Of a stretch of DNA of 64,000 nt, positions 15,227-56,534 are shown piece by piece. Numbering within the stretch: the first letter of the stretch is position 1; each line of letters begins with the position of its first letter. A program made the translations under genes and the position numbers. This DNA is from Tubulanus polymorphus (lineage: Eukaryota > Animalia > Nemertea). The notes below the pieces were generated by a model that saw only the letters and a list, made by a program, of their open reading frames with translations, ran no database searches and had not been told where the DNA came from. The DNA is taken from NCBI RefSeq assembly GCF_964204645.1, contig NC_134034.1:7476914-7540913 (forward strand), given 5' to 3'.

Positions 15227-15417
15227 TGTAATGTTCTTTTGCTGGTATTTATAAGCGAGTTCCCCTTCTCCGACTAGTTTTAATAAAAGCATCAAACGCG
15301 GACGATCATATTTTCTGTTGGTGGGATTTCTCCATCTTTATTTCGAACACAAGACGCCAGATGGCGCTACCGTGTAGTACACAGTCTAACATTATTAATT
15401 TTCAAACATTTCTTACA
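15227..15417 (-). repeat. Bel1 5' LTR (191 bp)
   Basis: Direct repeat of 8259-8448. Confidence 0.95.
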
Positions 15418-19993: not shown

Positions 19994-20106
19994 AGTAGTA
20001 GGGATAATAGGGGTTCACATCAAAGGTCGAAAAATAAATTCGAGTGTGCGGAATTTATTTTTCGACCTTTCGACCTTTGGCTTGAACCCCTATTATTCCT
20101 ATTACT
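19994..20106. repeat. Terminal palindrome of A (113 bp)
   Basis: AGTAGTAGGGATAATAGGGGTTCA...TGAACCCCTATTATTCCTATTACT around loop TTCGAGTGTGCGGAA. Confidence 0.85.
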
Positions 20107-28263: not shown

Positions 28264-29026
28264 GAATATTATGGAAGACCTCAGACGACATACGAGATAT
28301 GAGATATAACATACGAGATATGAGATGCAACATACGAGATACGACATATGACATGCGAGATACGACTTATTTACAGTACGGGTGTCCGTCCGCTAGCGCC
28401 ACCGCAGTGTATGTTTTTTCAATATTTACTGCATATAAATCGTTTAATACGGTGACTCGTACAGTCATCGTCAATTATATGAAACCAACATAGTCAACAT
28501 TTTATTCAAACCAGAAATATATTTCTTTTGGATAATGGACACCTGGACCGGACACAACGATATTAGGCCATACTGTGAACACCCTGGACTAGGCGCGCCG
28601 GCCGTTCCTCTCCCGCAGGCGACAAAGTTTTTCAAATCAAAAGATTTTCAAAAGATATCAAACTGTTCAAGTTCATAATATTATGCTATTTCTTGTCTTC
28701 CTTTGGTCTGAAAACGGCCTGGTGTTCAGGAGCCGGAGTTCCGGTTACTCACTGCAGAAAAAATAACTATGTTAACCGCCCGCTAGATCGCCGGCTTTTC
28801 TGCATTAGAAATCAAAATTCTAAAAAAAAACTCCGCAGCCGGAAATCCCGGCCCTCTAGTGTACGCCTCGGCTGTTTGACACCCCTGCCTGAGTTCTTGA
28901 ATCCCAAACAACCCGGGAACCCGTACATCGCCCTGGTATCCAGATTAAGAACTCCCGTGCTCTCTCTCAAGGTTTGAAATCCCCAGCTAAATTCCATCCC
29001 TATCGAGCTACCGGGGCTGACTGGTG

Positions 29027-29393
29027 AGTAATAGGGAATATCTTGTTTCATACCAAAGGTCGAAAGGTCGAGCTCATAAAAAATGAAAAATATGAAAATA
29101 ATAATAATTTCTATTTGAATTAGGAGTGAAACTCATATAAAATGAAAAATAAATTCGAGTGTGCGAACCTTTGATATGAAACAAGATATTCCCTATTACT
29201 CTTAAAATATTCATATATATGAATAAAATATAAATGAATAACTTCTAAAATCAATTTTAATAAAAAATTTAGTATTAAAATGGAAGCAAATAAGTACTAC
29301 TGCCCAACATGTAATATCAATATAGATAAATCCCAAAAAGCAAGACACAATAAAACGAAAACACATTTAGAGAATAAATTGAAACTAGAATAT
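29027..29393 (+). repeat. Left TIR of B (367 bp) including a 174-bp partly deleted terminal palindrome and the first 38 pPolB codons
   Basis: Reverse complement of 48247-48708 apart from a 95-bp deletion and an inverted palindrome centre. Confidence 0.92.
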
Positions 29394-32300
29394 AAAGATG
29401 ATATATTAGAAACTAAATTAGATGAATTAAAGAATGAAAAAGAAACATACAAATGTGATACATGTAATCAATCATTCAGTGATAAAAGATATTATAAAGA
29501 ACATTTAAAATCTAAAAGTCATATTAGAAATAAGAATAATGATATTTTAGGTGAAGATTATTTTGATAAAGATAATGATAAGAAACAGAAGACAATTAAA
29601 AGCATAAAAAATAAATTAAAAAATAAAAGACCATACATGGAAGATGTAAGAAATTATATTAATTCATTAGATAATAAAAAAGATATAGAGATAACCGAAG
29701 CATTTAAAAGTGATATTGGCCCAGCAGCTATCGAGTTTAAATTTCATAAAGGAAAAACATTAGAAGAAAATAAAAAACATTTAGAAAATATGAAAAATAT
29801 TATAAAAATAATTACTGATGTTGAATATCCTAAAATAAGTATATCAGTTAAAGTAAAGTTTATAAAATCTGAAGATAAACCAATATATAATATAAATTCT
29901 CATTCACAACATATTATATCTAAACAACATATAGATGATAAATTAGATAAATGTTATAATGAAGTAAAAACTAAAATAGAAGAGAAATATTTTGAAGGAT
30001 CTGGTTTAATATTTGATGAAATAATATTTATGACTTTACATGTTTATAACACAAAATATAATAAGTTAACTAAATCAAAACCAATTGATGAAAATAATCT
30101 ATCATATTATAAAGAACCAGATATTGAAGCATCGAGTTATATTAAACTACCATTTAAAACTAATGCTGTAATAAATGTACAAAATGAAGATGATAAATGT
30201 TTTCTATGGGCAATTATAAGTTGTTTACACCCAGTTATAGATTATAAACAACATAGTTTTAGATTAACTCATTATAAACCATTTGAAAATAATTATAAGA
30301 TAGATAAGTATCCTGTTATAATTAAAAACATCCCAAAAATAGAAAGAGATAATAATATAAAGATAAATGTATTTGATTTAATCAAATTTCCAAATACAAA
30401 AGGTAACAATATAAAACATTATACATTAGAACCTTTATACCTATCAAAAGATTATGATTCAAACGATGTTATAGATATACTATATTATGAGAATCATTAT
30501 ATGTGGATTAAAAGAATCGATTTATTTTTTAGATCAGAAAATGGTTTCGATAATAAAATATATCTATGTCGAAAATGTTTACATAAATTCAGAACTGAAA
30601 GTGCATTATTAAATAATAAACAATTATGTGAAAATCATGATTATTGTAAATTAGTTTTACCAAATGAAAAGGATAAAATATTAGAATTCAAAAAATATGA
30701 TTACAAAAATAAAGTACCATTTGTAATATATGGAGATTTTGAATCATTCAATAAAGAATTAACTGATCAAGATAGAAAAGAAATATATTATAAAAGAAAA
30801 AAATTAAATTCTAATGAAAATGATTTTTCAGATGAACCACCAAAAACAATACTATCAAAAAGATTCATCAATCAGCTGCTGCTTTCGGGTTATATATTAA
30901 ATCTGATTATCCAGAACTAATTGAAAGTGAATATTATCATTACAGAAATGAAAATGTTATCAATCATTTTTGTGACTTATTAATTGAATATGAAATAAGA
31001 TTTAGTAAATTATTGAATACAAATATAGAAATTATAATGACAGAAGAAGATAAAGAAGCATTTGAGTTTGCAGATAAATGTTTTTATTGTGAAAAGATAT
31101 TTAATTATAAAGATAAAAAAGTAAGAGACCATGATCATTTGAACGGAAAGTTTAGAGGCGCTGCACATGAGAATTGTAACTTACAAGCTAAGAAAATTAA
31201 CTTTGTACCAGTTATATTTCATAATCTATCAGTATATGATGCACATTTATTCATCAAAAAGTTATGCCATAAAATAGAAGAAATTAATAATGAAATAGAA
31301 AGATTAAATTCAAATAGATCAAAAGATAAAATACCAACTTATAAACTTAGAATGTTAGCTAAAACATCTGAGAATTATATATCATTCCAATTTGGTTGCC
31401 TAAGATTTAAAGATTCATATAGATTTTTAAATAGTTCATTAGATAACTTATCAAAATCATTAGTTGATGATGAATTAAAAATATTAAAGCAACATTTACC
31501 AAATAATGATGATTTTCAATTAATGAGATATAAAGGAGGAATTCCATTTTCATTTCATAAATCACATAATGATTTTAACATAACTGAATTATTGAAAGAA
31601 CAATTCTATGATGAATTAAAAAATGAATATGTTAAAGATGAAGTATATAATAGAACATTGAATATTTGGAATCATTTCAAAATAGAAAATCATGGGCAAT
31701 TAGTAGATATATATTTAAAATCAGATGTATTATTATTAACCGATATATTCGACAGGTTTAGAGATGTAAACCTAAAATATTTTAACATTGATCCTTGCCA
31801 TTGTTATTCATCACCAAGTTTAACATGGGATTGTGGATTAAACTTTACAGATCTAAAAATGGATTTGTTAACAAATATAGATCAATTACTATTATTTGAA
31901 AAATCTATAAGAGGAGGAGTTTCAGGTGTATTAGGTGATAGATATTTCAATGTAAATGATAACCCTGGATATAAGTTATTATATATAGATGCAAATAATT
32001 TGTATGGTTGGGCAATGATGGAACCTCAACCTTATGGAGTATTTGAATTAACTGAAGTTTTACAGAATGAAAATAATGATAAATTTGATTGGAAGAAAAG
32101 AATTCTAGATATTGCAGATGATTCAGATACTGGTTACTTCTTTGTTGTAGATTTAGAATATCCTGAAGATAAAAAATTTAAATCTAGAAATCTAGCATAC
32201 TGCCCCGAACATAAAACTGTAACTCATGAAGAATTATCAAATTACCAAAAAAGAATTAAACCCGAAAATCATATTCATACAGAAAAGTTAATGGTAACTC

Positions 32301-33323
32301 AAGAAGATAAATATAATTATGTAGTACATTATAGAATGTTAAAGTTTTATCTAAAACAAGGAATGATCCTAAAAAAAGTACATAGATATATTTCATTTAG
32401 TCAATCTAAATGGTTAGAAAAATATATAGATTTTAACACCAAACAGAGAACTGAAGCTAAAACTGATTTCGAAAAAGATTTCTTCAAGTTAATGAATAAT
32501 GCATTCTATGGTAAGACTTGTGAAAATATTAGAAATAGAAATGATATTGAGTTAGTAAGTAATGGTAAAAGAATTAGACATTTACAATCATATGCTAAGT
32601 TTTTAGGTAACAGAATATTTGATGAAAATTTAGCTGCAGTTAAGATGAGAAGAACATCTATGAAATTTAATAAACCAATCTATGTTGGCGCTTCAGTTTT
32701 AGAATTATCAAAATTACTAATGTATGAATTCTATTATAATATATTACAACCACTTTTTGGAGAAAAACATATAGAAATATTATATTTTGATACTGACAGT
32801 CACATATTAAAGATAAAAACTGATAACATAACTGATGATTTAAAAACATTAAAACATCATTTTGATTTCAGTAATTATCCTAAAAATCATGAATTGTTTA
32901 GCAATGATAATAAAAAAGTTCCCGGGTAAATTCAAAGATGAATTAGGTGGTGAAGAAATGATTGAATTCATTGGTATTAGATCTAAAATGTATTCATATA
33001 AAACTAAAGAACATGAAGCTAAAAAGTTAAAAGGAATAACAAAAAGTGTAGTAGAAAAGAATATTCATTTCAAAGATTACATCAATTGTATATTCAATGA
33101 AGAAGTTAGAAAACATAAGATGAGATGTTTAAGATCTGAAGATCATGAAATGTTTATTGAAGAAATTGAAAAGATAAGTCTAAACCCATTTGATGATAAA
33201 AGATATATTTTAGATGATGGAATTCATACAGTTGCTTATGGTTGTAATTTAGATGAATACTTAAAATTTAAAAGAGAAGAAACAAAAGAGAACGAGATAA
33301 TGAAAATAATTCTAACGTGTTAA
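29280..33323 (+). pseudogene. Protein-primed family B DNA polymerase with N-terminal zinc fingers and an endonuclease VII-like Zn domain
   Basis: YGDFES exo I, CFYC..VRDHDH..G.FRGAAH..CN, FHNL..YD, YIDANNLYG, KLMNNAFYGKT, YFDTDS motifs. Frameshifts at ~30860 and ~32925. Confidence 0.95.
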
Positions 33324-33352
33324 TCAAATTTTAATAAAAATATGTATTATAA

Positions 33353-33708
33353 ATGGAGAGTAAACAAGCACACAGCGAGAACAACAAAACATTTCTAGAT
33401 AGAATAAAAGATACTTCAAATGTCAAATCAGTAGATTATAAATTTAAGAAGTTAAAAGAATTAATAATCCATAAGAAATATCTAATTACAAATATCGATA
33501 CAGTTACTAACAAATATGGAGATAAATTAGTTATACACTTAGAATATGAAGGATTAAAAGGAAAATACATATAAATTCAGAACATATTTACCGGATAGAT
33601 TTCATAGATTATCAAGTGAAGATTTAGAAGAATTATGTTCTGGAGATTTCTATTTCGTATACAAAGGTAAGAATGAAAAAGGGCATCATGAAATAGATTT
33701 CGAATAAG
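33353..33708 (+). pseudogene. Small beta-rich protein (KYG...LP.RF family; possible ssDNA-binding OB fold)
   Basis: ORF 33353..33574 continues past the stop as ...LPDRF...FVYKGK. Function is a guess. Confidence 0.45.
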
Positions 33709-33724
33709 AAAATATGTAAAATAA

Positions 33725-34480
33725 ATGGTAGAATTAAAAGAATACAGAATATTTGTTGATTCAAGAAAACTTACTAATTATAAATCTCATAATTTACTAA
33801 TACAATTAGATAGAGAATTCAAGAATTGTGTTGATTTAAAATTAGTTAATATAAGTTTATGTAATTCTTTTCATAATATATCGAATAAAAGTCTTGATCA
33901 TTTAGCTTTTAAAATTTATGTTAGAAATTTGAATAAATGGTTTCATCTTTATCTAAAACCAGGATTATATAATTTAGGAACATTAGCGCAAGAAATTAAT
34001 AAAAGAGCTCGTTTAAAAATGGGTGCAGCTGCTAGATCTGAAATTAGATTTATTAAAAGTGATAGTTCTAATAAAATAAGAATAAAGTTAACTAATGAAC
34101 AACATAGATTTCTAGTAAGAAAACCTTTAGCTAAACTGTTTGGAATTCTTCCGGATAGACATTATTCAAGTGTTGAAACTTATACAAATATAATGACTTT
34201 TACACACTTTTATATTTATTGCAATTTAATTAATCCTACAAAAACATTTGAAGCAACTAAAGATACAATTTGTAATTCTAGTATATTAAATATTTTACCA
34301 TTAAAAAATGTTAAACAATTTGGAACGCAAATAAATTATAATTTAGCTGAATGTGATTTTAAACCTTGTATTCCACATTTCAATAATTTTAAATTAGAAA
34401 TAAGAAATCATTATGGATATTTAATTGATTTGAATAACTTTCCTGTGATATATGAATTAGTTATAAGATGTAAAGAGTAA
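33725..34480 (+). CDS. Minor capsid (penton, single jelly-roll) protein
   Basis: FVDSR...I.L......LV.ISL.NSF.NI, PG.Y, YIYCNLI and IRN..G.LIDLN pattern typical of Polinton pentons. Confidence 0.75.
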   Translation: MVELKEYRIFVDSRKLTNYKSHNLLIQLDREFKNCVDLKLVNISLCNSFHNISNKSLDHLAFKIYVRNLNKWFHLYLKPGLYNLGTLAQEINKRARLKMGAAARSEIRFIKSDSSNKIRIKLTNEQHRFLVRKPLAKLFGILPDRHYSSVETYTNIMTFTHFYIYCNLINPTKTFEATKDTICNSSILNILPLKNVKQFGTQINYNLAECDFKPCIPHFNNFKLEIRNHYGYLIDLNNFPVIYELVIRCKE

Positions 34481-34496
34481 TTTTTTCACTATATAG

Positions 34497-34830
34497 ATGA
34501 ATATAACTGTTGGACCGAGTATATGTTTTGGATTTGATTTTAAACGTGAGAAAGAAATGAAATTTAACGTTAATGATGAAATTACACATATTAAAAATAT
34601 TGCATTTTCTAATGAAACAACATTTGAGTATGAAACAACAATAGATAAAGAAACTTTAAATGTAGAAAAGATTACTAATTTAATCTTTAAGATTTTATGA
34701 ATTAGATGAAGATTTTATCATCGATGATATTAAAAAAATAATAATTGAAATATATACAAATGAAACTAGTAATGAAATAAATGTTGAATTAACCATGAAT
34801 AAGATAACTAAATATTTTGATGATAGTAAT
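34497..34830 (+). pseudogene. Small acidic protein of unknown function
   Basis: ORF 34497..34700 with a probable frameshifted continuation. Confidence 0.4.
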
Positions 34831-34844
34831 TTTTTGATAAATAA

Positions 34845-35070
34845 ATGAGTGATAATAAGTGGATAATAACTGGATTATATAATGGCGCATTACTATCAGT
34901 TGGAACTGTTGGTTATTCAATGGTATTAAAAAAAGTATTCAAAATGGGAAGTGTTAATGTTGATAGATTTGATATAAATGATATTTTAAAATTAACATTA
35001 GCAGTTACTTTAATTTAACTATTGATTATTTAGAAAAAACAAAAATATATTCCTCCCATATAAATGCATA
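34845..35070 (+). pseudogene. Small hydrophobic (two-helix) protein
   Basis: TAAATG start; reads ...YNGALLSVGTVGYSMVLKKVFKMG...ILKLTLAVT with frameshifts. Confidence 0.55.
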
Positions 35071-35088
35071 ATTTTTTTTGCTAAATAA

Positions 35089-35483
35089 ACGGCTTCTGCA
35101 ATTATAACTATTATAGGATCGGCAATTGTTAACGCTTTAGCATTTATTGGTGGTGGTTATTTATTCAAGCATATTGATAAAAATAGTTCATTAGGAGAAC
35201 AAAGAAGACATAATTTAGCATTAGAGAAATATAATAAAGCAGCAGAAGAATATAGAGAAAAGAGGCAAAACTATATGGATTATATTAACAAGGAATTATA
35301 TGATCAGAAGATTTCACACGGAGATTTTCAATCAGTTGATGATGCAATGAGTTTATATAACGCGGTAACCAAAAAAGAAAAATTACATCTATACAAACCT
35401 TAATTATCTGATTATTATACTTGATAATTTGGATTTTAGGAGGAACTGTTATTGTTATATTTGTTGCTTATAAGTTTACTAAT
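35089..35483 (+). pseudogene. Hydrophobic N-terminus plus coiled-coil virion-type protein (start codon mutated to ACG)
   Basis: (M)ASAIITIIGSAIVNALAFIGGGYLF...EQRRHNLALEKY follows TTTTTTTTGCTAAATAAACG. Confidence 0.6.
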
Positions 35484-35511
35484 TAATTATCTATTATTTT
35501 TTGTTAAATAA

Positions 35512-35946
35512 ATGGATGATAAAGTTAATAATATTGATATTATTCCTCATGATATAAATAAAACTAAATTAAAAACATATTTAGAAAAACAAATATTAGA
35601 ATTTGAAAGTGACTTAAAGATAAAAAAGAAAAAATATTTAAAAAGTAGAATTATATATTATCTTATTATAAGTGGTTCGGTTACAATTAGTTCTGTAATA
35701 ACATTTCTAGCAATATTCAGTCCATTAACACCTTTAGCTATATCAATTGGTGTATTAGGATTAAGTTCAAGTGTTTTAACCGGTATAAGTTCAAAATTAA
35801 ATATAAAAAGAAATAAAGAAAAAATTAAAACTAATATAAAAGAAATTAATAAATTAAAGAATACACTAGATTATATAATAAGTTTAAATGGCCATATAAC
35901 AGTTGAAGAACAAGATAAATTATTAAAAGAATTGATAAATTATTAA
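35512..35946 (+). CDS. Two-TM membrane protein flanked by basic coiled coils
   Basis: Two adjacent hydrophobic stretches in an intact 144-aa ORF. Confidence 0.7.
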   Translation: MDDKVNNIDIIPHDINKTKLKTYLEKQILEFESDLKIKKKKYLKSRIIYYLIISGSVTISSVITFLAIFSPLTPLAISIGVLGLSSSVLTGISSKLNIKRNKEKIKTNIKEINKLKNTLDYIISLNGHITVEEQDKLLKELINY

Positions 35947-35962
35947 TTTTTTAATTATATAA

Positions 35963-37346
35963 ATGGCAGATAGTTTTCCAAAAGCTTTCCAATATAATAA
36001 ATCAATTAAATATAATATTCCAGCAATAGATTTTAATAAAGATATTACATATAGAAATGAAGTTTTAGATTCATTAACTAGAAATTTATGTTACTGAAAC
36101 TAATAATTTTAATGCAAAGATGGAAAATATATTTCATGTATATTTAATTAATTTTAAAAAATTGAAAGATGAAAAACAGTGGTTATTAAAATCTAATATG
36201 AAGTATTGGCAGAACCAATTAAATTTTGCTGTTTATTGTGCAACAACAGGATGTGGAATTAGTTGGAATGATCATTTGAACAATTCTAATTATAAATTAA
36301 TTCAAAGTTTATTTAGATTTCATACATACTTTCAAATCAGAATAATATTAAATGAATTAGAGTGCGCTTTACCAGGATCTAGGTATTTAAAAGAATTAGA
36401 TAATAATATTAATTTATCAAAGTTTTATAAAATTTGTAATGAATTTAATATAGATATAAATAATTCTGATTTTAGAACAAAAATTGGAACAATAAGATCA
36501 CTTCCTTGCCCTAAAAAGATTGCAGAATATTGTGCACTTCCCATACCATCTAATAGTTTTTATAATATCTATAACAATAAATTAGGTTATGGTAAAATAG
36601 AAACAAAGGATTTAAGAACATTAAATTTCAATAAATTACCGAAATTTTATGATCATTTAAAACAAGAAAACAATAATGGTTGGGTTTATTTTATTTTAGA
36701 AAATAGTGAAGGTTTTACTAAATCAGGTATAGAAAGAATAAATCAATCTATTAGAACTTATTTGATATGTATTTTAGGTGCGCAAGTTGAAACAAGATCC
36801 CCAATAATTGGAAATTTAAATACATCATTTGATACACAGAAACAATTCAAAGTATTATTTGAAGATTCAATTCATAATGATAAAAATAGATCTATTCCAG
36901 AAAACATTGTAAGATATCAAAATTATTTAGATAAATCACATATTAGATTAAATTATTGTATAGGCCCTAATCTATTAATTATTTCTAATGATTTAGTACT
37001 AAAGATGGGAAATATAATTGGTTATAATAATCTAATTAAAACTGCAACAATAAATAATTCATTTGGATTAAATGATATAAATAAAAAGATTATTACTGCT
37101 CCAAAATTAATGGAAGGTGAAAAAAATAAAAAACATATTCAATCAACTGAAACTAAAACTAATAATATTAAATTAAATAATGATTCTAAAATAAAAGATT
37201 ACAATACATCAGAAAATATAAAAACTGATATTATTCAACATGATATAATTAAAACTAATGATGATAATAAATCCCATGAAAATACTAAATTAGCTATAAC
37301 TTGTATAGGAATTGTTATAGGAGGAATATTATATTTTAAATTTTAA
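35963..37346 (+). CDS. Conserved Polinton protein (YWQNQLNFAV.CATTGCG) with C-terminal TM; true start probably 35963 with a frameshift before 36120
   Basis: 408-aa ORF; upstream TAAATG-MADSF segment is conserved in copy A. Confidence 0.75.
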
Positions 37347-37362
37347 TTTTTATAAGATATAA

Positions 37363-38370
37363 ATGTATGTAGAAGGTGGAGAAGCTTATGAAATGGGAGA
37401 AATGGGAAATAATAATGAAGGATTTATACCTGATGAACCACAACCTGATTTTAATGAAACTAATATTGATAATGATGATGGATCGGCATATAATTTTAAT
37501 TTAGCAGATAGTGGTTCTAAAGCCCCTTCAACAGACGAGTTTGATAAAAAAACTAGATCGAGAATAAATGCTGAAAATGAAAATCCAGATTTTGTAAAAC
37601 AAAATTTAGAAAATGATGAATTTATATATAATTTCCTACCTATATTTGAAAGATTTGGATATAATATAAATGATAGAGGTGCCAGATATTTAGTAAGAGA
37701 ATTAAAATTTTTAGATGGTGAATATTATTATCATTTGAAAGATGATTATTTTATTAATATCACTTATAAAAATCAAAACAAAATAATAGCAGAATCGACT
37801 TTGAGTAATTTAGAACCATCTAGAATTAAAAGAATAAGTAATAGTAATGAAATAGAAAATGTTACCGAAACAGAAATAAATCAAAATAAAAGAGTATTTA
37901 AACAAAGAATTAATGAATTATTTGAAATAATAAATGATAATTTAGAAACAGAAACAACTTCTGAACAGAATGTAACTTCTAAAACTAGTTAATTTAAATC
38001 AAATAAAGTTCCAATTGAAAAACTTTTACCGAATGGAATAATTGATGCAACGGATCAAGAATTAGAAGATTTAAATATATTTTCTGATAAAGCAATTTGA
38101 GAAATTATTAGTACAAGAAATGAAGCTGATAAATTTGCCCTTGAAAAAAGTTAAAGAGATTTTAAAATAAGAACATTAAAAAAAGAAAAAAATGATAAAT
38201 TTAAAGAAATAGAACAATTAAAATGAGATGGAGATAATAAAGTTATTGAAGAAATTGAATTTAAAAACATAAATGCATATTAAAAAAAAAATTGATGATT
38301 TAGAATATAACATAGAATTTCAGAAAGAAGAAATTATTATTAAAATCATATGATTATAATATTAATAGAG
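37363..38370 (+). pseudogene. Degenerate tandem paralogue of 38437 gene
   Basis: Aligns with 38437 ORF (EGGE.YEMGEMGNNNEG...); stop at 37990 and decay after it. Confidence 0.8.
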
Positions 38371-38436
38371 TTATTAGTTATAAGTTATTATTTAAATAAG
38401 AAGGTATCACAATACCATCATTTTTTTATAATGTAA

Positions 38437-39903
38437 ATGGCAGAAGGTGGAGAAGATTATGAAATGGGAGAAATGGGAAATAATAATGAGGGATATATTG
38501 ATGATGATTATAATGATGCAGAAACTAATATTGATGATGGTAATGAATCAGCATATAATTCTAATTTAGCAGATAGTGGTTCTAAAGGCAAATCAACAGA
38601 TGAATTTGATAGAAGAACTAGATCGAGAATACCTATTGAAAATGAAAATCCAGGTTTATTAAAGGAAAATTTAGAATATAATGAATTTATTCATAATTTC
38701 AAACCTATATTTGAAGAATCTGGATATAATATAAATGCCAGAGGCGCCAGACTTTTAGTAGAAGATTTAAAGTTTTTAGATGGTGAATATTATTATAGGT
38801 TGAAAGATGATTCGGATTATTATATTAATATCTCTTATAAAAAAGAAGAAAAAATAATAGCAAAATCAACTCTGCTTAAGTTAGACCTATCTAGAATTAA
38901 GAGAATAATAAATAGTAATGAAATAGAAGATGTAACACAAGAAGAAATAAATCAAAATAAAAGAGTATTTAAACAAGGAATTAATAAATTATTTGAAACA
39001 ATCAATAATAATTTAGAACCAGAAACTAGTAGACCTAATTCAAGAGAAGTTCAAACTGAAAAAATTTTACCGAATGGATTACTTGACGCAACAAATCAAC
39101 AATTAGAAGATTTAGATATATTTTCTGATAAAGCAATAAGAGAAATTATTAGTATAAGACTTGCAACTGATAAAATTATGCATGATAAAAGTATAAGAGA
39201 TAAAATTAGAACTTTAGAAAAAGAATTAACTGATAAAAATGAAGAAATAGAACAACTAAAGTCAGATCTTGATCGTAAAGCAATTGATGAAAATGAATTT
39301 AGACAAAGACATGCATATTTAGAAAAAGAAAAAGATGATTTAGAATATAACATAGCATTACAAAAAGAAGAAATTAAATTATTATTAAAATCATATGATT
39401 ATAATATTGATAGATTAAAGGATGTTTTTAAAAGATATCTAATAAAACCAGATTCTAGAATATCATTGAAAGATAGAATAAAATTATTATTTAAGTTTGA
39501 AAGAATAACAATTCTTTCAATTCTAACAGCAGTAACTATGTTATTTACAACAATAGGTTTAGCAATATCAAATGCTTTGAAATCTACTCCTACTCCAAAT
39601 AAACCAGATAAACCCCCGAATGATAATAATTCTATACAAGATAAAGTTAAAGATGGTTTAAAGAAATTAGCAAAATATTTATGGGAACTATCTAAAAAAT
39701 CTGCTGCAGCATTGCCAGGATTTATTGCATCAATTGTTGGTTTTATATTGAAATCTGCAGGAAACATTATTAACTTTGCTGCTGAACATATTATTTTATT
39801 TTTAATTACAGTTGTAAGTGCTATTATTTTTGGGTAAGTAAATATGATATCAAAAAATATCAAGAAAAAATAATAAAAAATAAACATGATAAAAAATAAA
39901 TAA
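38437..39903 (+). CDS. Acidic/coiled-coil protein with TM and amphipathic C-terminus (candidate membrane-penetration protein)
   Basis: 466-aa ORF. TAA at 39835 corresponds to TTA in copy A, so the natural end is slightly downstream. Confidence 0.7.
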
Positions 39904-39923
39904 TTAATTTTTTTGTTTAATAA

Positions 39924-41172
39924 ATGGGTGGGAGTTATATCAATCCTTCTAAGAATCATAGAATATCTAATGCTATTAAAGCAGAAAGATCACATCATAT
40001 AATTACTCATAACCCTTCTAATATTAATCCTGATGAAACTTTATATGTTAGAATTCCGAGATTAACACAAAATACTTTTTGTGTTCCAAATAGTATTTAT
40101 TTATCAGCCGATATAAAAGTAACCGGTAATAATAATAATTATGTTGTTGATAATGTTGGAAGATATTTGATTAAAAAATTAACTATAAAGATTGGTCCAG
40201 AAACAGTTTTCTCATTAGATGATTATAATTTATTTATGCATTATAAAGATTTATGGTTAACTAAAGAAAATAGAAGTAATATGATATTTCAAGGAATCCA
40301 ATCAGAAAACCAAAATAAATTAAGATCAGAAGCGCATAATGCAATATTAACTAATGCTATAGATAAATTGATAAAAAGTATATATGGAAGCAAATATAAA
40401 ATTCCATTAGACTTTGAATTGATAAATAATAATGCACCTTTATATAAATACGCAATTCAAGAAGACGTTATATTTGAGATAACATTTGCTCCTGTTAATG
40501 AAATTGTATTATCTAGCGTTAATAAAGATATGAGTTATAAATTATCGAATATATGTTTAGAATATGACACAGTAACTGATGAAAATATTTCAAGTATAAT
40601 TCAAACTCAATACAATCAAGGATTTTCATTATTATATGATTATATTGATAAATTTAAAACTGTAATTATTAATGCAAATGATGAAATTATTAATGAGAAT
40701 ATTAACTTCCCAAGAAGATCTATTAAAGGTATATTAATATTTTTTTACCATTGCAACATATACTAATGGTGCAATAAATGTTGATAATTATTATAATCCT
40801 GAAATAACAAAAGTAGAAATAACTATCGAAGGTATAGCAAATAAAATATTTTGTCAAGGAATGAGAATGATTGATCAATGGCCAGAAATTAGAAAACATT
40901 TTATGAATGAAAAAGTGAAATCATCTGAAAATTGTAACATTAATCAAATTGATTATTATACCGGTAATAAATATGCATTATGGTTAAATTTTAGAACAAC
41001 AGAGGATAATTCATTACATGGTTCTGGAAAAAAACTCCAGAACACTAAAGATGGAATACAATTATTCATGACAAAGAATAAAGGAATCAAAAATTTTAAA
41101 ATGCACATTTATATTATATCTGACGCGCAATTAAATATTGTAAATTCTCAATTGAATAGTGTTATGTATTAA
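39924..41172 (+). pseudogene. Major capsid protein (double jelly-roll), copy B
   Basis: About 415 codons of beta-rich sequence (HNPSNINP..L.VRIP, LEYDTV, PRRSIKGIL, ALWL.FRT, ISDAQLNI). One frameshift in the T-run at ~40740. Confidence 0.85.
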
Positions 41173-41205
41173 AATTTTTAACTTTAATAAAAATATATAT
41201 AATAA

Positions 41206-42387
41206 ATGGAAGGTGGAATATATGAAATACAAACTCCAAGTGAAATGATAACAGATATATATTATATATTACCGTATGATGAATACTGTAAGTATTTTGG
41301 AGATTACTTTAATCAATTCAAATATAGAATAAGTAAAATAAAAGATAATATTGAAACTAAAATAGAAAATAAAATTGAAACTAAAATAGAAGGTAAGAAT
41401 GATATTGAATATAAAATAGAAGATAATATTGAAACTAAAATAGAAGATAGTAATAATATTGAAACTATAATAGAAGATGTAACAGCATCTACATCTTATA
41501 ATATACCCTCTACATATGATATTGAATCAAAAAAGACAAATGAAAAATATTGTGACGTATGTAAACAGTATAAAAGTTATAAGAATTGGGCAACTCATCT
41601 TAATTCACTCAAGCATAAGAAAAATAAGAATAAGACTATAAATGAATTGAATAATGATAGTGAAATTGATAATGATAATGTTAAAGAAGATAAATATTGT
41701 GAAGAATGTGATAAATATATAAGTCGTAGTAATTTTTCAAAGCATAAATTAACACAAATACATTTGGATAATATAGAAAGAAATATATGTGAAAAGTGTA
41801 ATGTTGTTGTATTACCTAAAGATAGAATTAAACATGATAATTCTTTTGAACATACAATAAAAGCTGCTGATTCAAATAACCTTTATAGAGTACCAACTGT
41901 ATTTTTTGATATCGAAAATAATTATCATAGGAAATTATATAGATCAATTTTTATCGATTATGCAAGAAATAATCCAAAACAAGTATTATCAGATATTGAA
42001 ACTGGTCGGACGCATATAAAAATTGATCTATATAATTATTGGGGTATACATTATTTCATAAAATTTAAAAATATAGATTTTTTAACAGAATTGAAAAAAG
42101 TTGCTGCTAATGATAATATAAGTGATAACTTTGATGAAATAATTCAATACTACAGTTATGAAGATTTTTTACAGGATGTTATAAATAAAATAAGAAATGA
42201 TGCAAAAAATAAATATAAAAATATAAGTGAAGACAAATTAAACCAATACATTTATTTAACTTATGAATTGTTTGCTAAGGGTTTGAATAGTATTGGTTAT
42301 CATACTAAACTATTAGGCGAAAGAAAATCACAAGAATTAAAAGATGCATGGCTCAAATTGTTTTCAGAATTAGAATCAGAAAAGTAA
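41206..42387 (+). CDS. Multi-zinc-finger (C2H2/U1-like) accessory protein with IETKIE repeats
   Basis: Three CxxC...H.....H fingers in an intact 393-aa ORF. Confidence 0.75.
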   Translation: MEGGIYEIQTPSEMITDIYYILPYDEYCKYFGDYFNQFKYRISKIKDNIETKIENKIETKIEGKNDIEYKIEDNIETKIEDSNNIETIIEDVTASTSYNIPSTYDIESKKTNEKYCDVCKQYKSYKNWATHLNSLKHKKNKNKTINELNNDSEIDNDNVKEDKYCEECDKYISRSNFSKHKLTQIHLDNIERNICEKCNVVVLPKDRIKHDNSFEHTIKAADSNNLYRVPTVFFDIENNYHRKLYRSIFIDYARNNPKQVLSDIETGRTHIKIDLYNYWGIHYFIKFKNIDFLTELKKVAANDNISDNFDEIIQYYSYEDFLQDVINKIRNDAKNKYKNISEDKLNQYIYLTYELFAKGLNSIGYHTKLLGERKSQELKDAWLKLFSELESEK

Positions 42388-42404
42388 TTTAAAATATGAA
42401 TATA

Positions 42405-43012
42405 ATACCCCCTTGTGTCTTTATTATCTTTAGTAGGCTTAGTACTTTTAGTACATAAAGAATAAATCTTTATTTTATTAGTAGTGAATAAAATTATCTT
42501 TAAAACTACTAAACTACTAAAGACAATAAAGACATAAATATATATATATTACTGTTTCAATAATTATATTTATTCATCTGATGGATTTTATATATTACTG
42601 TTTCAATAATTAAATCTATTTATGGCGCATATTTATTATATATTACTGTTTTAATAATGATAAAAATCATAGATTTATCATATATAAAAATTATTTATAT
42701 ATCTATTTTTCTAAGTACTAATAAAATAAAGATTTATTCTTTATGTACTAAAAGTACTAAAAGTACTAACGATAATAAAGACATAACAAACACATATAGA
42801 TGTAATAAATATCATAGAATTATCTATCTCACAGATTTATTATATATATTTGATTCAGTAATGATAAATCTATGTGTGTTTGTTATGTCTTTATTATCTT
42901 TATTATCTTTAGTAGTTTAGTAGTTCTATTTTATTTTTAAAGTATTAATAATATGAAGATTTATTCTTTATGTACTAAAAGTACTAAAGATAATAGAGAC
43001 ATAAGGGGGTAT
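42405..43012. repeat. Inverted-repeat cluster between convergent gene arms of B
   Basis: ATACCCCCTTRTGTCTYTATTATCTTTAGTA arms at both ends, plus further internal inverted copies (e.g. 42721-42786). Confidence 0.75.
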
Positions 43013-43062
43013 CAGGTATTAGGGTATCTAATAGGGTATCTAATACATAGATATATAAATAG

Positions 43063-43674
43063 TTATTTTATAAATTTATATTCATAGGGAAATTGTAGTC
43101 TGAGTAATAATTTTGAACCTTTTTTATTCTTTAATTTATTCATATATTCATCATGTAATTCAGTAGGTATAATTTGATTTTCTTCCAATGATTGTTGCAT
43201 AGATTTTTTATCTTTCTTATAAAATAAAACTAGAAATCTTATATTCTCCCTAAAGTCTTTAACAATTGAATTATATTTTTGATTTAAAACCCATGTTGAT
43301 ATCCCAAAATGTCTCCCAGAGAAAGCTAGATAACATAACTCACTTTCTCTAACTTTTGAATCATGTAAATTAGCGCAATCATCTACAATGAATAATGTAT
43401 TTGATCCTTAATAAGTATCAATTGCTATTTTAATGCAATTATCTAAATTTTCTTTTACTGTTTTAGGATCTAATATAATAAACTTTTTTATCTTAACTAT
43501 ATCTCTATTATATGTTTTATTCATTTCATAAGTAGGACAGAATAATATTATATTATCAAAATGATTCTTATAAATAGTTTCTAACAAGTCTAATATGAAA
43601 TGTGTTTTACCACAGTTGGTTACTCCAGTAACTAACATATTATGCGGTTCGAATATAAATAAATCTTTATTCAT
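43063..43674 (-). pseudogene. A32/FtsK-HerA packaging ATPase, copy B
   Basis: GVTNCGKT, FIVDDC, SGRHF motifs. Single premature TAA at 43408-43410. Confidence 0.9.
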
Positions 43675-44779
43675 TTATTCTTTTAATTTTACTAGATATA
43701 ATCCATTCATTAAATTTATCATCATATCATTTATATTTCACCAAAGAATACTTTTTCCCTTTAAGAGTTTTTGTTTTCAATACTTTTTCTATTTTGTATT
43801 CTATTTCATCTGGATTTGGTACAAGTGATAATTCTTGTTCATAGAAATAACCTAATATTTCTTCATCTTTTAGATCTTCTAATTTATAAACAAATGGTTT
43901 AGTTAATATTATCTTTTTAATCTTGAATATTTCTTCTGTAAAATTTGGGGTATAACCTTTATAAAAGGTTTTTCTATATTTAGATATTCTTACGTGTTGT
44001 CCAATTTTGAATCTAGGTTCACCGAAATCATGTGTAACAAATGCTCCATATAAATTATTCCAAACTATTTCCGAATTATCTTCTTTTCTAGCGTGTATAG
44101 GTTTCATATTTATAGAACTATGTTTAGAATTATTGTAACCTTTCACTAAATCATCTAATACATCGATATATTTATATGTTTCATTAGCAGTAAAATATTT
44201 CCACATTCTAGTTTTCAATGTTTTATTAAATCTTTCTATAATAGATGCTTTTTTATCTGAGTGTGTTGAAAAATAATCTACATCGTTATCAGATAATAGT
44301 TTTTTGAAATGTTTGTTATAGAATTCCTTACCTTCATCAAATTGTATCTTATCTGGAATAGCTTCTTTAAATATAGATTTAAAAGCATTTGTCACTCCTA
44401 TTCCAGTTTTATTTTTGATTGGAATTGACCATGCGTATCTACTGAATATGTCTATAACATTCAGTATCCAGAAATATCCTTTGTTGTATTCTTCTATGTT
44501 CTTCATGTCAATTAAATCAGCTTGCCAATGTTGATCGATATATGAAACCATAACTTTTCATGTTAAATAAGTTTTATCCATTTTCTTGTGGATTTGATAT
44601 GTTGGTTGATTTTGTAACCATGATTTTAATTCGCTATATTTTATATCACCGTGTGGGTGCCGTACGGCACCATTTTCATTATTAGATTTAATTTTATTCC
44701 ATAATTCTGAAACGTTAGAATATGATACTTCACTTTCTGGGTTATAATATAAATCTCTTAAATATTGTTCTTTTTTCAT
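43667..44779 (-). pseudogene. rve integrase with chromodomain, copy B (two in-frame TGA)
   Basis: WQADLID, FDEGKEF, IIERFNKTLK motifs. TGA at 44558-44560 and 43727-43729. Confidence 0.92.
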
Positions 44780-44785
44780 TCTATT

Positions 44786-45154
44786 TTAATCCATTAATAT
44801 TAATCTTGGTTTATTTTCAATGACTTTATCATTTGACTTATTTGGTATGATAGGTTTATTGTCATTGGAATCATTATTGTTATAATCAGATTTATACTTA
44901 TATTTATATATTACACCGGAGAATATAATAACTGTTACTAATCCAATTGTAATATATAATTTATAATTACTTCCAGCATTAGAAGAATCAGATGGATTAT
45001 TATTTGAATCAATATCAGATAAAGTCTGTGATTCATTTATATCAATTAATTTCTTTTTCTTAGCTTTTTTTAATTCTGAAGATCTTTTACCTAATTCTCT
45101 TGCCCATTTAATTTGTTTCTCGGATCTAGCCTTTTTCTTAACTCCATCACTCAT
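44786..45154 (-). CDS. Basic N-terminus, single-TM protein
   Basis: Intact ORF conserved in A, B and C. Confidence 0.75.
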   Translation of the reverse strand: MSDGVKKKARSEKQIKWARELGKRSSELKKAKKKKLIDINESQTLSDIDSNNNPSDSSNAGSNYKLYITIGLVTVIIFSGVIYKYKYKSDYNNNDSNDNKPIIPNKSNDKVIENKPRLILMD

Positions 45155-45749
45155 TTATTTTAGTTAATTTTTGTTCTGATTCATTTTCTGTTTCAGCGTT
45201 TGGTTGTAGTACATCTGTTTCGTTCTTACCTGATTTATATTCCATAGGCTTAATGTTCGAAAATGTTATGACGCCAGTAGAAATTAATGTCATAACCGAT
45301 CCTAATTGAAATGAAGCATAACCAACCCATTTTTGTAATTCAGTCATAACTAAATAGTCATTTTTCAAATCACTATATAATTTATTTTCATCATCAATTG
45401 GTATTAACTGGTTACATAACTTAGAATAATATTTGACAATACCATCTGAAATAGAATCATTTATTCTAGCTAATCTAGCTTCTTCATAAATCTTAAAATA
45501 TTTTATTACTTTATCTGGTTTCATAGAGTCTAGTTCTTGAAAAGTAATGATTCTATTTAAAAACTCATTAGTTTTTCCACCGGCAATCAATAGTTCTATA
45601 TGATGCTTACAATATAAATAGTATTCATAATCTATATTGTTATTAACTTGAATAGAATTAGAAACAACTGTATCTTTATTATCACTTATACCCAAATCAT
45701 CTAATGTTTTTTCAATATCAATACTATTCTTACTCGATTTCTTTGACAT
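45147..45749 (-). CDS. Conserved helical Polinton protein with C-terminal hydrophobic segment
   Basis: Intact 200-aa ORF conserved in A, B and C. Confidence 0.75.
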   Translation of the reverse strand: MSKKSSKNSIDIEKTLDDLGISDNKDTVVSNSIQVNNNIDYEYYLYCKHHIELLIAGGKTNEFLNRIITFQELDSMKPDKVIKYFKIYEEARLARINDSISDGIVKYYSKLCNQLIPIDDENKLYSDLKNDYLVMTELQKWVGYASFQLGSVMTLISTGVITFSNIKPMEYKSGKNETDVLQPNAETENESEQKLTKINE

Positions 45750-46926
45750 TTATATTAGAGAAATTTAATAAGAAAAATATAATAAGTATTCTTCAAATGA
45801 TACTAGATAGTTAAAGTTAAAGAACTCGATATTGACTACTGATACTAGCTATTTGAGTTTAAAGAATTTCTATTTGAATCTATTCAAAATATAAAGTATT
45901 CTCTTTTGAAAAGAAAGTATTAAAAATATAATAGAATTCACTAGATAGTTGAAGTTATTGTTTTTTTATTATATTTTATTTAAATTAGGATTTAGATTAT
46001 CTCACTACTATTGTTTATCTATTAGGAGCAGTAATTATAACTGTCCAGATAAGTCATTTCGGATTCTTGATAATAAATCCTAAAACTGAAAATAAATTCA
46101 AAGAAACGACTGGTGGAAATACTATTTCATAAACACACGTATATTTTATTCTACAATCATTATCGATTTCCACATTCCAAGCCGCTCCTGAGAGGAGCGG
46201 TAAGGTATGCGTGGAATGCAGGAATCAATAAAGTACAATACAACATCTGTCACTGTGTGTCATTAACAACAGCTTAATGACGCAATTGAAATTCCGGCAA
46301 ACGTAATGCATTGAAAGCCTATACAGTGAGGCTAAACTGCTACAATCTCATGAGTTGAAATATCCATAATTTCTGATTCCACATCCATCCATCTTCACTT
46401 TCTTGGTTCAAATAGCAATGGTCTTCTTGTTACGCGTAGCATTTTGTTATCTAAAAGATAAATATCTAGCGTAGAATAAAACTAACTTGAAGTTGTAGTT
46501 TTCAAATAAGATTAATACACTTACACATAACCATTTGTGGCGCATCTTACCAGGATAAGTTTTACATGTTTAACGTTTCACAACGCCTTAATAACAACAA
46601 AAACAGTACTTACATTTATAACTGTAAACTCCTAAAATTGTGTTTATAGAGAGAATATCCTATACGTTCCTATGCTTATGTGCTGCGCGTTTATAACTGC
46701 CAGTTATTCACTAGCTAAACACCGTCTGGTGCAACAGATGTTCCTTCTTTTGTAATATAATTGATTAATCCTTTTCAACTGAAATAGCACGTTCGATCAA
46801 TATTCAAATGAGGTGCACCCTATTCAACTGAATATGAAATGCGGCACAGATGTTTTTGTAAACAACCTAATATAATTACATACAGGCGGTTTGACATAGA
46901 TCGAGAGTAACCGGTTTTCTAAGCGT

Positions 46927-47568
46927 TTAACATTCAACGTATTTTTCTTTATGTGTTGAGTTCCATAATTCAACAAATGTCTTTGCTTTATCCAGTTGAT
47001 CTAAATATAACTGTATATTTAGTTTATTAGATTTAATAATGTTTTCCTTCTTTTCTAAAGGTCTTAAATTTCTCCAGTTCCAGATTAGCTTCTTATTATA
47101 ATCATCACTCATGTCAAATTTAGAAATAGGCAACACGTGATCAATATGAAAGTATTCACCATAATTATCTATATTCATTTTATCATCGAATTGAAATATA
47201 ATCCATGATTTAAGAAATTTATCTGTACAACCCAACAAATTAGATTTAGTGTTTCTGAATCTGTTTCTTTGTTGAATAATTGTGTTAATCTAGATCTTAA
47301 GCATTGTTTCAATCTAAAATTAAGATCTGTTTGATATCTTTCTCTCATATATTCTGCCATATAATAATTATAATGTTCTATATTATCTTCTCGGTATTGT
47401 TTGGTATATAGTTTTACAGCAATATTGAAAACCATCTTTGCTAATCTTACGCTTACTAAATTCTGTTAATGATTTATCTAATTCACATTTAGAACACTTC
47501 TTGTAATATATATTTATAACACCAGCGTTATTTGTAATATTGATAGTTTGTGGTTGTTCTGATTCCAT
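46927..47568 (-). pseudogene. HNH endonuclease, copy B
   Basis: Three frameshifted ORFs; KKCSKC..YCCK and FHIDHVLP..NWRNLRPL..KEN motifs. Confidence 0.85.
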
Positions 47569-48246
47569 TTATTATACATATTTTTTACTAAATTGGTTAA
47601 TATTTTAGAATCCTCTTCCATTTCTTCGACCAACGTCATCCTTTTTCATTCCTCGCTGCTTTTGATTAGTCGTTTCGATTCCTTTATATCTAAATCATAC
47701 CACTGGGCTAAACCGCGCATTCAGGCGCGCTTTTGCTTAATGCGCATGCGTTAATCATAATTATATATTCATTCTATAAATTCTGTAAAAAAGAAACAAC
47801 ACATGCGTTACATGCGTCACATGCGGCCATTGATGTCCGGTTTTGCTTAATGCACATGTGTTAATCATAATTATATATTCATCCTGTAAATAGAAACAGC
47901 TGAACACAGAAAATTCAAACGCATTCATGTCTGCATAGTAACAGCTGTAACAGCTGAGAATTTATAGATTTATTCCATAGCTCTTTACATGGAATGTATA
48001 TAGGCTCAAATAGAATCATGTTCTAGTATATACAGCTATGCATTTTTTAAATATATTTTATTTGAATTCTATTTGATATCTCACTACTTTTGTTTATCTA
48101 TTAAGAGCAGTAATTATAACTGTCCAGATAAGTCATTTCGGATCCTTGATATCAAATTCCTCAACGTATTGTTCATTATTTGGATCATTGTTCCATTGAT
48201 CAATAAATTTCTTTGCCTTTGTTAACTGTTCTGAATATAACTGTGA

Positions 48247-48708
48247 ATATTCTAATTTCAATTTATTCTCTAAATGTGTTTTAGTTTTATTGTGTCTTGA
48301 TTTTTGGGATTTATCTATATTGATATTACATGTTGAACAGTAGTACTAATTTGCTTCCATTTTAATACTAAATTTTTTATTAAAATTGATTTTAGAAGTT
48401 ATTCATTTATATTTTATTCATATATATGAATATTTTAAGAGTAATAGGGAATATCTTGTTTCATATCAAAGGTCGAAAGGGCTAGTGAGTAAAAAATGAA
48501 AAATATGAAAATAATAATAATTTCTATTTGAATTAGGAGTGAAACTCATATAAAATGAAAAATAAATTCGAGTGTGCGAGAATTATTTTTCATTTTATAT
48601 GAGTTTCGCTACTAATTCAAATAGAAATTGTTATTATTTTCATATTTTTCATTTTTTATGAGCTCGACCTTTCGACCTTTGGTATGAAACAAGATATTCC
48701 CTATTACT
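48247..48708 (-). repeat. Right TIR of B (462 bp) including a 269-bp terminal palindrome (48440-48708)
   Basis: Arms pair around loop TTCGAGTGTGCGAGAA centred at ~48574. Confidence 0.93.
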
Positions 48709-49917
48709 CTGGTGAGTCCACTAGACCAGCCGTTGAGAGTCGAGACTGGCCAGTTTTCGCTAACCGTCAGGGCAGTATGCGGCACTGTCTTTTTGAAGCC
48801 ATAGTCTGGGGTCCTTCCCTGAAAATTTGTTCAATTTATTCTGAGGGCTTTTTGGCTATCTTTCTTTTCTGACATCTTTCATGAAAAGGGCTAATGGCTG
48901 AATCTGAATAACTTTCATAATCGGAGAATCCAATTTAAGATCATTCTTATCAATTATCATGGCCAGTTTTAAAACTGTTTATTGACAAAACTACAGGAAC
49001 CACATAAATAATAAATCTTCAGCAAAACACAACAGCTCTTACATTTGTAAAGATGAGAGATCCATGGAAATATCAAGTAACATTTTTTTAGACAGGGAAT
49101 TAGCGGAACACCGGAACGTTGCTTGTATGGTGCGTTTGCACCCGTCGCAAAAAACGTCGTGATAAACGAAATCAGCTGGACTAGGGCCAGGAGCTGAGAG
49201 TGATACAATGGAACTCCATTCTGATATTTAATGAATAATTCATTCACTAAATTTATGTTATCTTTAGTATTTTTAATTCATGTCCATGTTTCAATTCATT
49301 CGTTGAAATCATAGTACACTAAACAGATTCCGCGTGTGTCGGACTTTTTTTTAAACTCTTTGGTAATCGGCATTCGTAATATACATACATCTATCATTCT
49401 TCATCGAAAACCCTAGATCGAACGCGAAGTTTAAACCCTTGACTAGCGCGATTCTTAGCACCACCAATTTGAAGGGGCCATGGCTAACTCTTTTTGAGGG
49501 ATTTTTGTACACTCAAAAATGGATTTTGGAATTTGAGGCGTTTTTGGTGGATTTAGGGGCTGTAGCCCCGTATTTGGAGCCAACTCGAATCACCGGACCA
49601 TCGGTGTCTCACACTAAGAGTGGCCCACTGACCGTAGCGAGAGGCCGGTCCCCGGTAGCGGTTGATCGAATATTTTTCGTTTCAAATGAAACGTTTTTCG
49701 CATATCGATATTCATAGTTAATGTATACGCCACTGCCTGCGCTCGTGTCGTAGTATACGCCGATGTTGAAAAATATACACTGCGGTGGCGCTAGCGGGTG
49801 GACACCCGTACTATAAAACAAGTCGTATCTCGTATGTCATATGTCGTATCTCGTATGTTGCATCTCATATCTCGTATGTTATATCTCATATCTCGTCTGA
49901 GGTCTTCCATAGAATAT

Positions 49918-50789: not shown

Positions 50790-51174
50790 TTTATTGAATT
50801 ATCTGACTTCATTTTTATTTTATTAGAACTATTACTTTTTAAAAATTTAATATCAAATCCAGCATCACTACCTAATTGGACTCGAGCTCTTCTATTAATT
50901 TCTTGCGCTAATGTTTCTAAATTATATAATCCTATAATCCTGGTGTTAGAATAAGACTAACCCATTTTTGTACTTTTAATATAAACTGCAGAGACTCCAT
51001 GTTCAATAGTTTTATTCGATATATTGTAAAATGAGTTACATAAACTTATATATACTAATTTTAAATCTACACAATTTTCAAATTCTCTATCTAATTGTAC
51101 TAGTAAATTATGTGATTTATAATTTGTAACTTTTCTGGAATCAACAAATATTCTATATTTTTTAATTCAACCAT
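50790..51174 (-). pseudogene. Penton-like gene fragment of old Polinton D
   Basis: MVELK..RIFVDSRKVTNYKSHNLLVQLDREF matches 33725. Confidence 0.75.
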
Positions 51175-51229
51175 TATCTTTAACACAAAAAATTACCTCG
51201 AACAACTAAAAAATAATTTTAATAAACTT

Positions 51230-52470: not shown

Positions 52471-52475
52471 ATGTT

Positions 52476-56265: not shown

Positions 56266-56534
56266 AGTAATAGGGAATATCTTGTTTCATACCAAAGGTC
56301 GAAAGGTCGAGCTCATAAAAAATGAAAAATATGAAAATAATAACAATTTCTATTTGAATTAGTAGCGAAACTCATATAAAATGAAAAATAATTCTCGCAC
56401 ACTCGAATTTATTTTTCATTTTATATGAGTTTCACTCCTAATTCAAATAGAAATTATTATTATTTTCATATTTTTCATTTTTTACTCACTAGCCCTTTCA
56501 ACCTTTGATATGAAACAAGATATTCCCTATTACT
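56266..56534. repeat. 269-bp terminal palindrome of C
   Basis: One visible difference from the reverse complement of 48440-48708. Confidence 0.93.

Follow-up and report, generated by a model that had tools for sequence, protein, structure and literature searches.

We analyzed a 64,000-nucleotide stretch of Tubulanus polymorphus DNA (contig NC_134034.1, hereafter the window), which contains three related Polintons, A, B and C. Polinton B is present with both of its ends (Table 1) and shows terminal inverted repeats (TIRs), a repeated end motif (AGTAAT/AGTAGT, set against the motifs given in part of PMC8097293) and the 6-bp target-site duplication (TSD) CTGGTG on both sides. Polinton A ends at 20106, and Polinton C starts at 56266 in the opposite orientation. 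Pfam matches identified a retroviral-type integrase, a packaging ATPase and, with a weak match, a major capsid protein in Polinton B. In its 17 scanned reading frames, there was no Pfam match to an adenain-like maturation protease and no HUH Rep/NS1 nickase. A 608-bp AT-rich fold-back within B (42405-43012, z -18) has ends unlike those of the Polinton and is probably a separate MITE insertion. A Bel/Pao LTR retrotransposon with 97.9% identical LTRs lies inside Polinton A (8259-15417), a fragment of a more distant Polinton polymerase region lies between B and C (50798-53229), and a 2.2-kb insertion is located just within the end of Polinton C (56630-58861).

Table 1. Polinton B and the Polinton ends of the window (window positions)
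Feature	Positions	Strand	Description
Polinton B	29027..48708	+	19,682 bp, both ends present; TSD and TIR; pPolB, capsid (weak), ATPase, integrase
Left TSD of Polinton B, CTGGTG	29021..29026	.	
Right TSD of Polinton B, CTGGTG	48709..48714	.	
B left end	29027..29200	-	174 bp, running from an outer-type base through an inverted centre to an inner-type base; one arm lacks 95 bp
Switch-point interval of the B-left inversion	29077..29104	.	28 bp identical in both arms
TIR of Polinton B, ordinary part running into the body, left copy	29201..29393	.	97% to right copy
pPolB, first piece	29280..30920	+	frame-broken gene; zinc fingers, predicted terminal-protein domain, vOTU triad
pPolB, second piece	30836..32929	+	exonuclease with HNH/endonuclease VII insert, and polymerase
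pPolB, third piece	32853..33323	+	called C-terminus by position and overlap
Major capsid protein, two frames	39924..41172	+	Capsid_N E 0.003 (weak); tblastn matches in relatives
A32-type packaging ATPase, partial	43063..43407	-	PF04665 (Pox_A32) E 3.5e-5
rve integrase	43727..44557	-	PF00665 E 1e-9
TIR of Polinton B, ordinary part running into the body, right copy	48247..48439	.	
B right terminal palindrome	48440..48708	+	269 bp, with the loop between an inner and an outer arm; each base carries the end motif
Conserved asymmetric loop (TTCGAGTGTGCG) of B-right	48566..48582	+	outward orientation on the strand with its 3′ end at the terminus
Integrase-side end of Polinton A	19994..20106	+	short 113-bp palindrome, z -13; loop orientation as in B-right
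Integrase-side end of Polinton C	56266..56534	-	269-bp fold-back; same isomer as B-right

The pPolB gene of Polinton B is spread over three overlapping frames, and the pieces were analyzed separately. The second piece matched PF03175 (E 6e-17) and, just under the cut-off, PF02945 (E 8e-5), and its best fold match was the phi29 polymerase (E 6.5e-12). The Pfam scan of the third piece gave no informative match. In the first piece, a terminal-protein domain was predicted at about 29685-30047. The predicted fold of this piece (mean pLDDT 76) follows the strand-helix order described for terminal-protein domains, with the predicted linking serine, Ser241, in the loop before the last strand. Its best PDB matches were Y-family little-finger domains, weak by E-value (about 0.01) with a probability of 0.97-1.0, and a passage of PMC11161782 relates terminal-protein domains to these little-finger domains. 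Ser241 is conserved in 58 of 62 aligned proteins, and the vOTU triad (Asp304, Cys307 and His406) in all 62. Because the terminal-protein fold, the predicted linking serine and the OTU triad are conserved, protein priming likely persists, and its replacement is not supported.

The second piece also carries an HNH/endonuclease VII insert (about 31040-31186), for which a comparison with PDB sequences returned nothing relevant. The cysteines of the insert, Asp98, His99, His101 and Asn115 are invariant in all 28 aligned polymerases, and we take them to match the catalytic residues of T4 endonuclease VII. Nucleases of the HNH/endonuclease VII and VSR types cut mismatched or branched DNA. HNH inserts in Polinton polymerases are already known, as stated in part of 10.1101/2023.08.22.554363, and polymerase nuclease inserts are treated as possible intein relics in a section of PMC11161782.

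As originally predicted, every Polinton terminus in the window folds back (Table 1), and all four do so far better than shuffled sequence; z is -26 for the right end of B, with 0 of 200 shuffles as good, and -12 for its left end. The predicted conservation of the loop between differing arms was also borne out, since the loop word TTCGAGTGTGCG is common to all four ends (at 20039, 29154 and 48567 on the + strand and at 56396 on the - strand), and so was the double occurrence of the integrase end sequence, with the end word at both bases of every palindrome. The arms of B-right are asymmetric at arm positions 27, 42-50, 79, 98 and 101. The arms of each palindrome evolve in mirrored fashion: both arms of the Polinton A palindrome differ from those of B in this way, and over the first 39 positions, 6 of the 11 columns that differ between A and B changed alike in both arms, with one asymmetry shared. 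The end of Polinton C is not a second isomer. It matches B-right as a reverse complement (99.4% over 359 bp), which reflects the opposite orientation of the element itself. Therefore, A, B-right and C represent one isomer of the integrase-side end. In the predicted folds of these three ends, the last base is paired with the first, giving a 3′-terminal fold-back. In the window family, the strand with the 3′ end folds better than the other strand (-113.6 vs -103.4 kcal/mol; G.T pairs 6 vs 0).

The left end of Polinton B is an inverted copy of B-right at arm positions 1-78 and a direct copy at 51-140; its centre is therefore inverted, with the switch within the 28-bp interval listed in Table 1. 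The opposite orientation of this centre, as originally noticed, is thus confirmed. However, the end is not a full palindrome, as 95 bp of one arm are gone and only about 34 bp, at the base, are paired. The polarity of the base is normal, with the outer type outside and the inner type inside. Among the four window ends, the centre is inverted only in this damaged one, and the base asymmetry is inverted in none (normal in 4/4).

Raw reads from a DNA run of another study (X5, about 12% of the run) were aligned to half of the B-right palindrome and then to the whole of it. The half-palindrome alignment, which also took in contigs of X1, X2 and X4, failed to phase the arms, as outer-arm reads aligned too, and the whole palindrome was therefore taken as the reference. 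Read depth was about 1,480 in the loop compared with about 1,410 in the TIR body, the loop and both arms were covered by hundreds of read starts, and 339 reads departed from the reference at 48708 into heterogeneous flanks. The reads thus show a high-copy family whose members normally end in the palindrome. The right flank of Polinton B is itself repetitive (depth about 200), and read depth can therefore not be converted into copy number. Among the 40 listed of 137 variants, 6 of 12 inner-arm variants had a complementary mirror variant (0 of 100,000 shuffles), a count that reads aligned to the wrong arm could inflate (48 of 5,690 reads fit two places). With the loop covered as deeply as the TIR and with mirrored variants in the reads, the palindromes are not the mis-assembly against which the original prediction had cautioned.

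Three length classes were seen among the read joints: besides the long class, there was a medium class shorter by 58-60 bp and a short class shorter by about 80 bp, with the shortening in both arms. Against the whole palindrome, a normal end aligns cleanly, and an inverted centre has to differ from the reference. In the long class, the markers 48518, 48537, 48540, 48608 and 48630 were absent from a variant list reaching down to a share of about 18%, and the sixth, 48611, had a share of 18%; inverted or arm-converted centres thus account for less than about 18% of reads in the long subfamily. In the medium class, 130 + 27 reads continued from the loop into the outer-type arm; another 33 reads, with 19 different starts, continued into the inner-type arm according to our reading of the opposite-strand mirror joint 48505-48584. 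This corresponds to an inner-type share of 33/190 (17%, 95% interval 12-24%), in which the 33 reads may be inverted centres or arm-converted ends, the joint direction is not given, and mapping may favor one arm. The joint evidence comes from the 15 of 83 joints and the 6 of 191 loose ends listed. Centre inversion is probably not unique to B-left, but a minority form. Uniqueness to one end had been named as grounds for abandoning the flip/flop idea; the 33 reads suggest further inverted ends, but the reads strongly favor one form. Other opposite-strand joints, at 48552-48560 (78 reads) and 48536-48541 (35 reads), may come from ends in which the centre is deleted or of another type.

Polymerase searches yielded 148 loci, and the same end architecture was found in distant Polintons whose polymerase is about 35-42% identical. 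Of the 15 strong fold-backs in the first 100 loci, 7 were located upstream of the polymerase, in a zone that makes up 8% of the bases (p 8e-5). This is a rough enrichment, as the statistic takes in low-complexity repeats (L021, L081 and L110) and misses true ends before truncated polymerases (L074 and L080). Upstream fold-backs occurred in 7 of 42 loci with enough sequence compared with 0 of 120 control loci, namely viral-contig loci matching the end-motif pattern. An 18-letter arm pattern was found at four loci in viral contigs, all without palindromes. Ends were scored when the Polinton end motif, with a conserved word near +19, lay upstream of the polymerase. Of the 8 scorable polymerase-side ends, 7 (L052, L074, L080 twice, L237, L238 and L272) were palindromes of 104-186 bp in which each base carries the motif; palindromic ends thus occur beyond the family, in distant Polintons. 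L243 is interrupted by a gap. In L239, both the end motif and the HNH insert are present but the palindrome is missing, and the palindrome is therefore dispensable in this element.

Two relatives are complete. One (G001:C67:3805-23212) has 159-bp palindromes, is inserted in a TTA repeat and has ends that are identical at 158/159 positions as an inverted repeat; the other (G001:C9:291-15427) has 174-bp palindromes, a 6-bp TSD and ends identical at 173/174 positions. Neither is flipped. The polymerase of G001:C9 lacks the endonuclease VII insert and has an insert motif that we presume to be VSR-like (no Pfam call). We rejected the endonuclease VII insert as an obligatory partner of the palindromes, as G001:C9 has a palindrome without it and L239 shows the reverse. 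The loop word CGAG reads outward on the 3′-terminal strand in 10 of the 11 ends carrying it, with B-left as the exception, and is absent from L237, L057, L007, L075 and both G001:C9 ends. Of seven relatives folded, L080a, L080b and L007 favor the other strand and the remaining four differ by 3 kcal/mol or less; a strand bias from G.T wobbles was thus rejected as a general feature, as it holds for the window family and fails across the relatives.

Solo palindromes flanked by TSDs, which the original prediction had proposed as a check, were not found among these loci, and both candidates were explained otherwise. L315 (G001:C19:134867-135365) is a non-coding 499-bp element with a Polinton-type end motif, ordinary 73-bp TIRs and no terminal palindromes, and the second palindrome of L283 is the end of a complete element. 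Three more end-motif matches in G004 showed no fold-back. The complete element of G001:C9 (L321:291-15427) is inserted 8 bp from the palindromic end of another element (L283:169-282), and two ends lie close together in L080; it is possible that Polintons prefer inserting beside other Polinton ends. In the viral contig L007, a single branched palindrome (4657-4840), each base of which carries the end motif, lies between the protease-integrase and polymerase genes and thus has element genes on either side; it may mark the junction of a circle or concatemer, or may stem from an assembly join. In a larger viral contig, inverted palindromic repeats (L108:6410-6532 and 13728-13836) bound a polymerase and integrase module. 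Additionally, 48 contigs filed under bacterial or archaeal genomes (L233-L280) encode the polymerase family of the window Polintons, and the ones examined resemble eukaryotic Polinton DNA that was binned with prokaryotes.

From the architecture, polarity bias, mirrored arm evolution and conserved polymerase residues that we observed, we propose a putative mechanism in which the Polinton ends, imperfect palindromes of 110-270 bp with mostly fixed polarity, serve as fold-back origins on a protein-primed linear genome, a proposal that we consider about evenly balanced between right and wrong. The terminal protein would prime at the outermost repeat, and the palindrome would be copied as an ordinary duplex, so that its polarity is kept. 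On the displaced single strand, the 3′ end would fold back and rebuild the duplex end locally, which would spare the pairing of two termini 19 kb apart. Template switches of the polymerase within the fold-back would homogenize the arms and occasionally invert the centre; B-left would reflect a switch in the 28-bp identical stretch together with another near the base. The conserved differences between the inner and outer arms would distinguish the real end from its inner copy. Fixed polarity, seen in three of four window ends and in the two complete relatives, and the conserved priming module are in keeping with duplex copying of the ends from a protein primer, and intermolecular template switching is documented to homogenize arms and invert spacers (PMC8604942, in part). 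However, the 33 reads (19 starts) exceed one accident, unless one inverted copy was amplified. Moreover, a phi29-type polymerase can also use the 3′ fold-back as a primer, and the fold-back-origin model names nothing that stops extension. Fixed polarity also results from asymmetric hairpin resolution, as described in part of PMC1185569.

The strongest rival of fold-back origins is a hybrid replication, in which the 3′ fold-back self-primes, protein-primed copying rounds the hairpin and the integrase or the polymerase nuclease insert cuts the resulting dimer junction asymmetrically, sparing all but the outer-type site; polarity would be preserved, as happens at the left terminus of minute virus of mice (MVM). 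We consider this unlikely but deserving of serious attention. It would give a role to the base asymmetry, which is kept in A and B while the arms otherwise homogenize, and to the nuclease insert, whose endonuclease VII-type residues are invariant and which is replaced in G001:C9 by the presumably VSR-like type, both types acting on mismatched or branched DNA. The better folding of the 3′-end strand in the window family points the same way, as does the single palindrome of L007 between integrase and polymerase genes, which is expected of a junction, although it may be an assembly join. Both asymmetric resolution and a left end that exists in the flip form only have been described (PMC1185569, in part). 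On the other hand, no outer-arm-to-body junction was seen among the 15 listed of 83 joints, the strand folding bias is not general, the 17 scanned reading frames of B contain no HUH nickase, and the inserts may be the intein relics mentioned above. It is improbable, in our judgment, that a widespread Polinton group combines protein and hairpin priming, with the outer end as the only site at which the HNH/endonuclease VII or VSR-like insert, or the integrase, cuts the mismatched fold-back or the dimer junction. If it did, the outer-end cut would also give an integration-ready end without the terminal protein.

Alternatively, the palindrome may be a by-product of snap-back synthesis that doubled the end, with template switching keeping the arms alike without selection. 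Template switching would suffice for this, the arms vary freely in sequence and in length (113, about 150 and 269 bp in one family, besides the range in relatives), and L239 lacks a palindrome. Nevertheless, we find this account rather improbable, since palindromes occupy nearly all scorable polymerase-side ends and accompany two different polymerase inserts, the loop word and polarity are conserved across unalignable arms, and the base asymmetries are retained rather than erased. The model of the original prediction, covalently closed hairpin telomeres with symmetric cruciform or terminal resolution and equal flip and flop as in poxviruses or AAV, agrees with the inverted centre of B-left, the mirror joint in 33 reads, the AT-rich arms with mismatches and the endonuclease VII-like domain in the polymerase. 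However, both telomere forms of vaccinia occur in equal numbers (PMC8956199, in part), whereas inverted centres made up 1/4 window ends, 0/2 complete relatives, 33/190 medium-class reads (inverted or arm-converted) and less than about 18% at the long-arm markers. The ends of the relatives are strictly inverted, the reads are biased, the base asymmetry never flips, the terminal protein is retained and G001:C9 has palindromic ends without the endonuclease VII insert. Equal flip/flop is therefore largely refuted for the integrated copies, and we regard this model as very unlikely. That short-read or chimeric mis-assembly made the palindromes has almost no chance of being right: palindromes are hard to assemble and the B-left junction is known from the assembly alone, but raw reads of another study cover the loop and both arms, the same architecture occurs with TSDs in unrelated assemblies, and the arms carry conserved asymmetries and mirrored changes. 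For the family as a whole, an artefact is refuted.

To our knowledge, Polinton replication has never been observed, and its description rests on a long-range pairing model of simple TIRs. The long oriented palindromic ends are a real, conserved architecture, and the oriented palindrome with its doubled motif occurs in elements with different end motifs and polymerase inserts. Standard TIR annotation can set Polinton boundaries at the inner motif. The terminal palindrome provides a defined substrate for studying second-strand priming, the role of the nuclease insert and the removal of the terminal protein, which is called unclear for the step before integration in a passage of PMC11161782. Our literature searches did not turn up long terminal palindromes with a doubled end motif for pPolB Polintons, which the founding papers of 2006-2007, Repbase or supplements may mention. 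The words "palindrom" and "hairpin" are absent from the main text of the nematode and vertebrate Polinton surveys (10.1101/2023.08.22.554363 and PMC8097293), and the portions of PMC11296320 and PMC12721341 consulted contain nothing on palindromic Polinton ends.

The window Polintons resemble the Polintons/Mavericks with pPolB2 (HNH or VSR insert) described in parts of 10.1101/2023.08.22.554363, PMC8097293 and PMC11161782 in having a pPolB with terminal-protein and vOTU domains and an HNH insert, an rve integrase, an ATPase, a capsid protein, TIRs, a 6-bp TSD and a short repeated end motif. Unlike in these elements, their TIR starts with a long palindrome in which the end motif occurs twice. 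Terminal palindromes have been reported, and hairpin priming proposed, for virophages of the protist Halocafeteria and one PLV subtype (10.64898/2026.07.28.741278, a 2026 preprint, in part). There, too, the palindromes lie inside TIRs adjoining the TSD in elements with an rve integrase; however, these are protist elements, with 52 nt in the example and preferentially non-pPolB replication genes, whereas the window Polintons and their relatives have palindromes of 104-269 bp and a complete protein-priming module. Poxvirus telomeres, as presented in part of PMC8956199, share the AT-rich imperfect palindrome, the conserved mismatches and a nuclease that might resolve cruciforms. In contrast to them, the Polinton ends, studied here in integrated copies and short reads, showed no equal isomers, are integrase substrates with a TSD and occur together with a terminal protein. 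As in parvovirus termini, the predicted 3′ fold-back would be able to prime, and the asymmetric bubble near the stem base and the single dominant orientation resemble the left end of MVM (PMC1185569, in part). Unlike parvoviruses, the window Polinton is a double-stranded integrating element with its own polymerase, and no HUH Rep was found in its scanned frames. The linear telomeres of Streptomyces (PMC4513846 and PMC5449611, in part) likewise combine a terminal protein with terminal palindromes and have a 3′ single strand that folds. Streptomyces, however, uses an internal origin, end patching and several short palindromes, whereas the window Polintons have one long palindrome and would replicate by strand displacement from the end.
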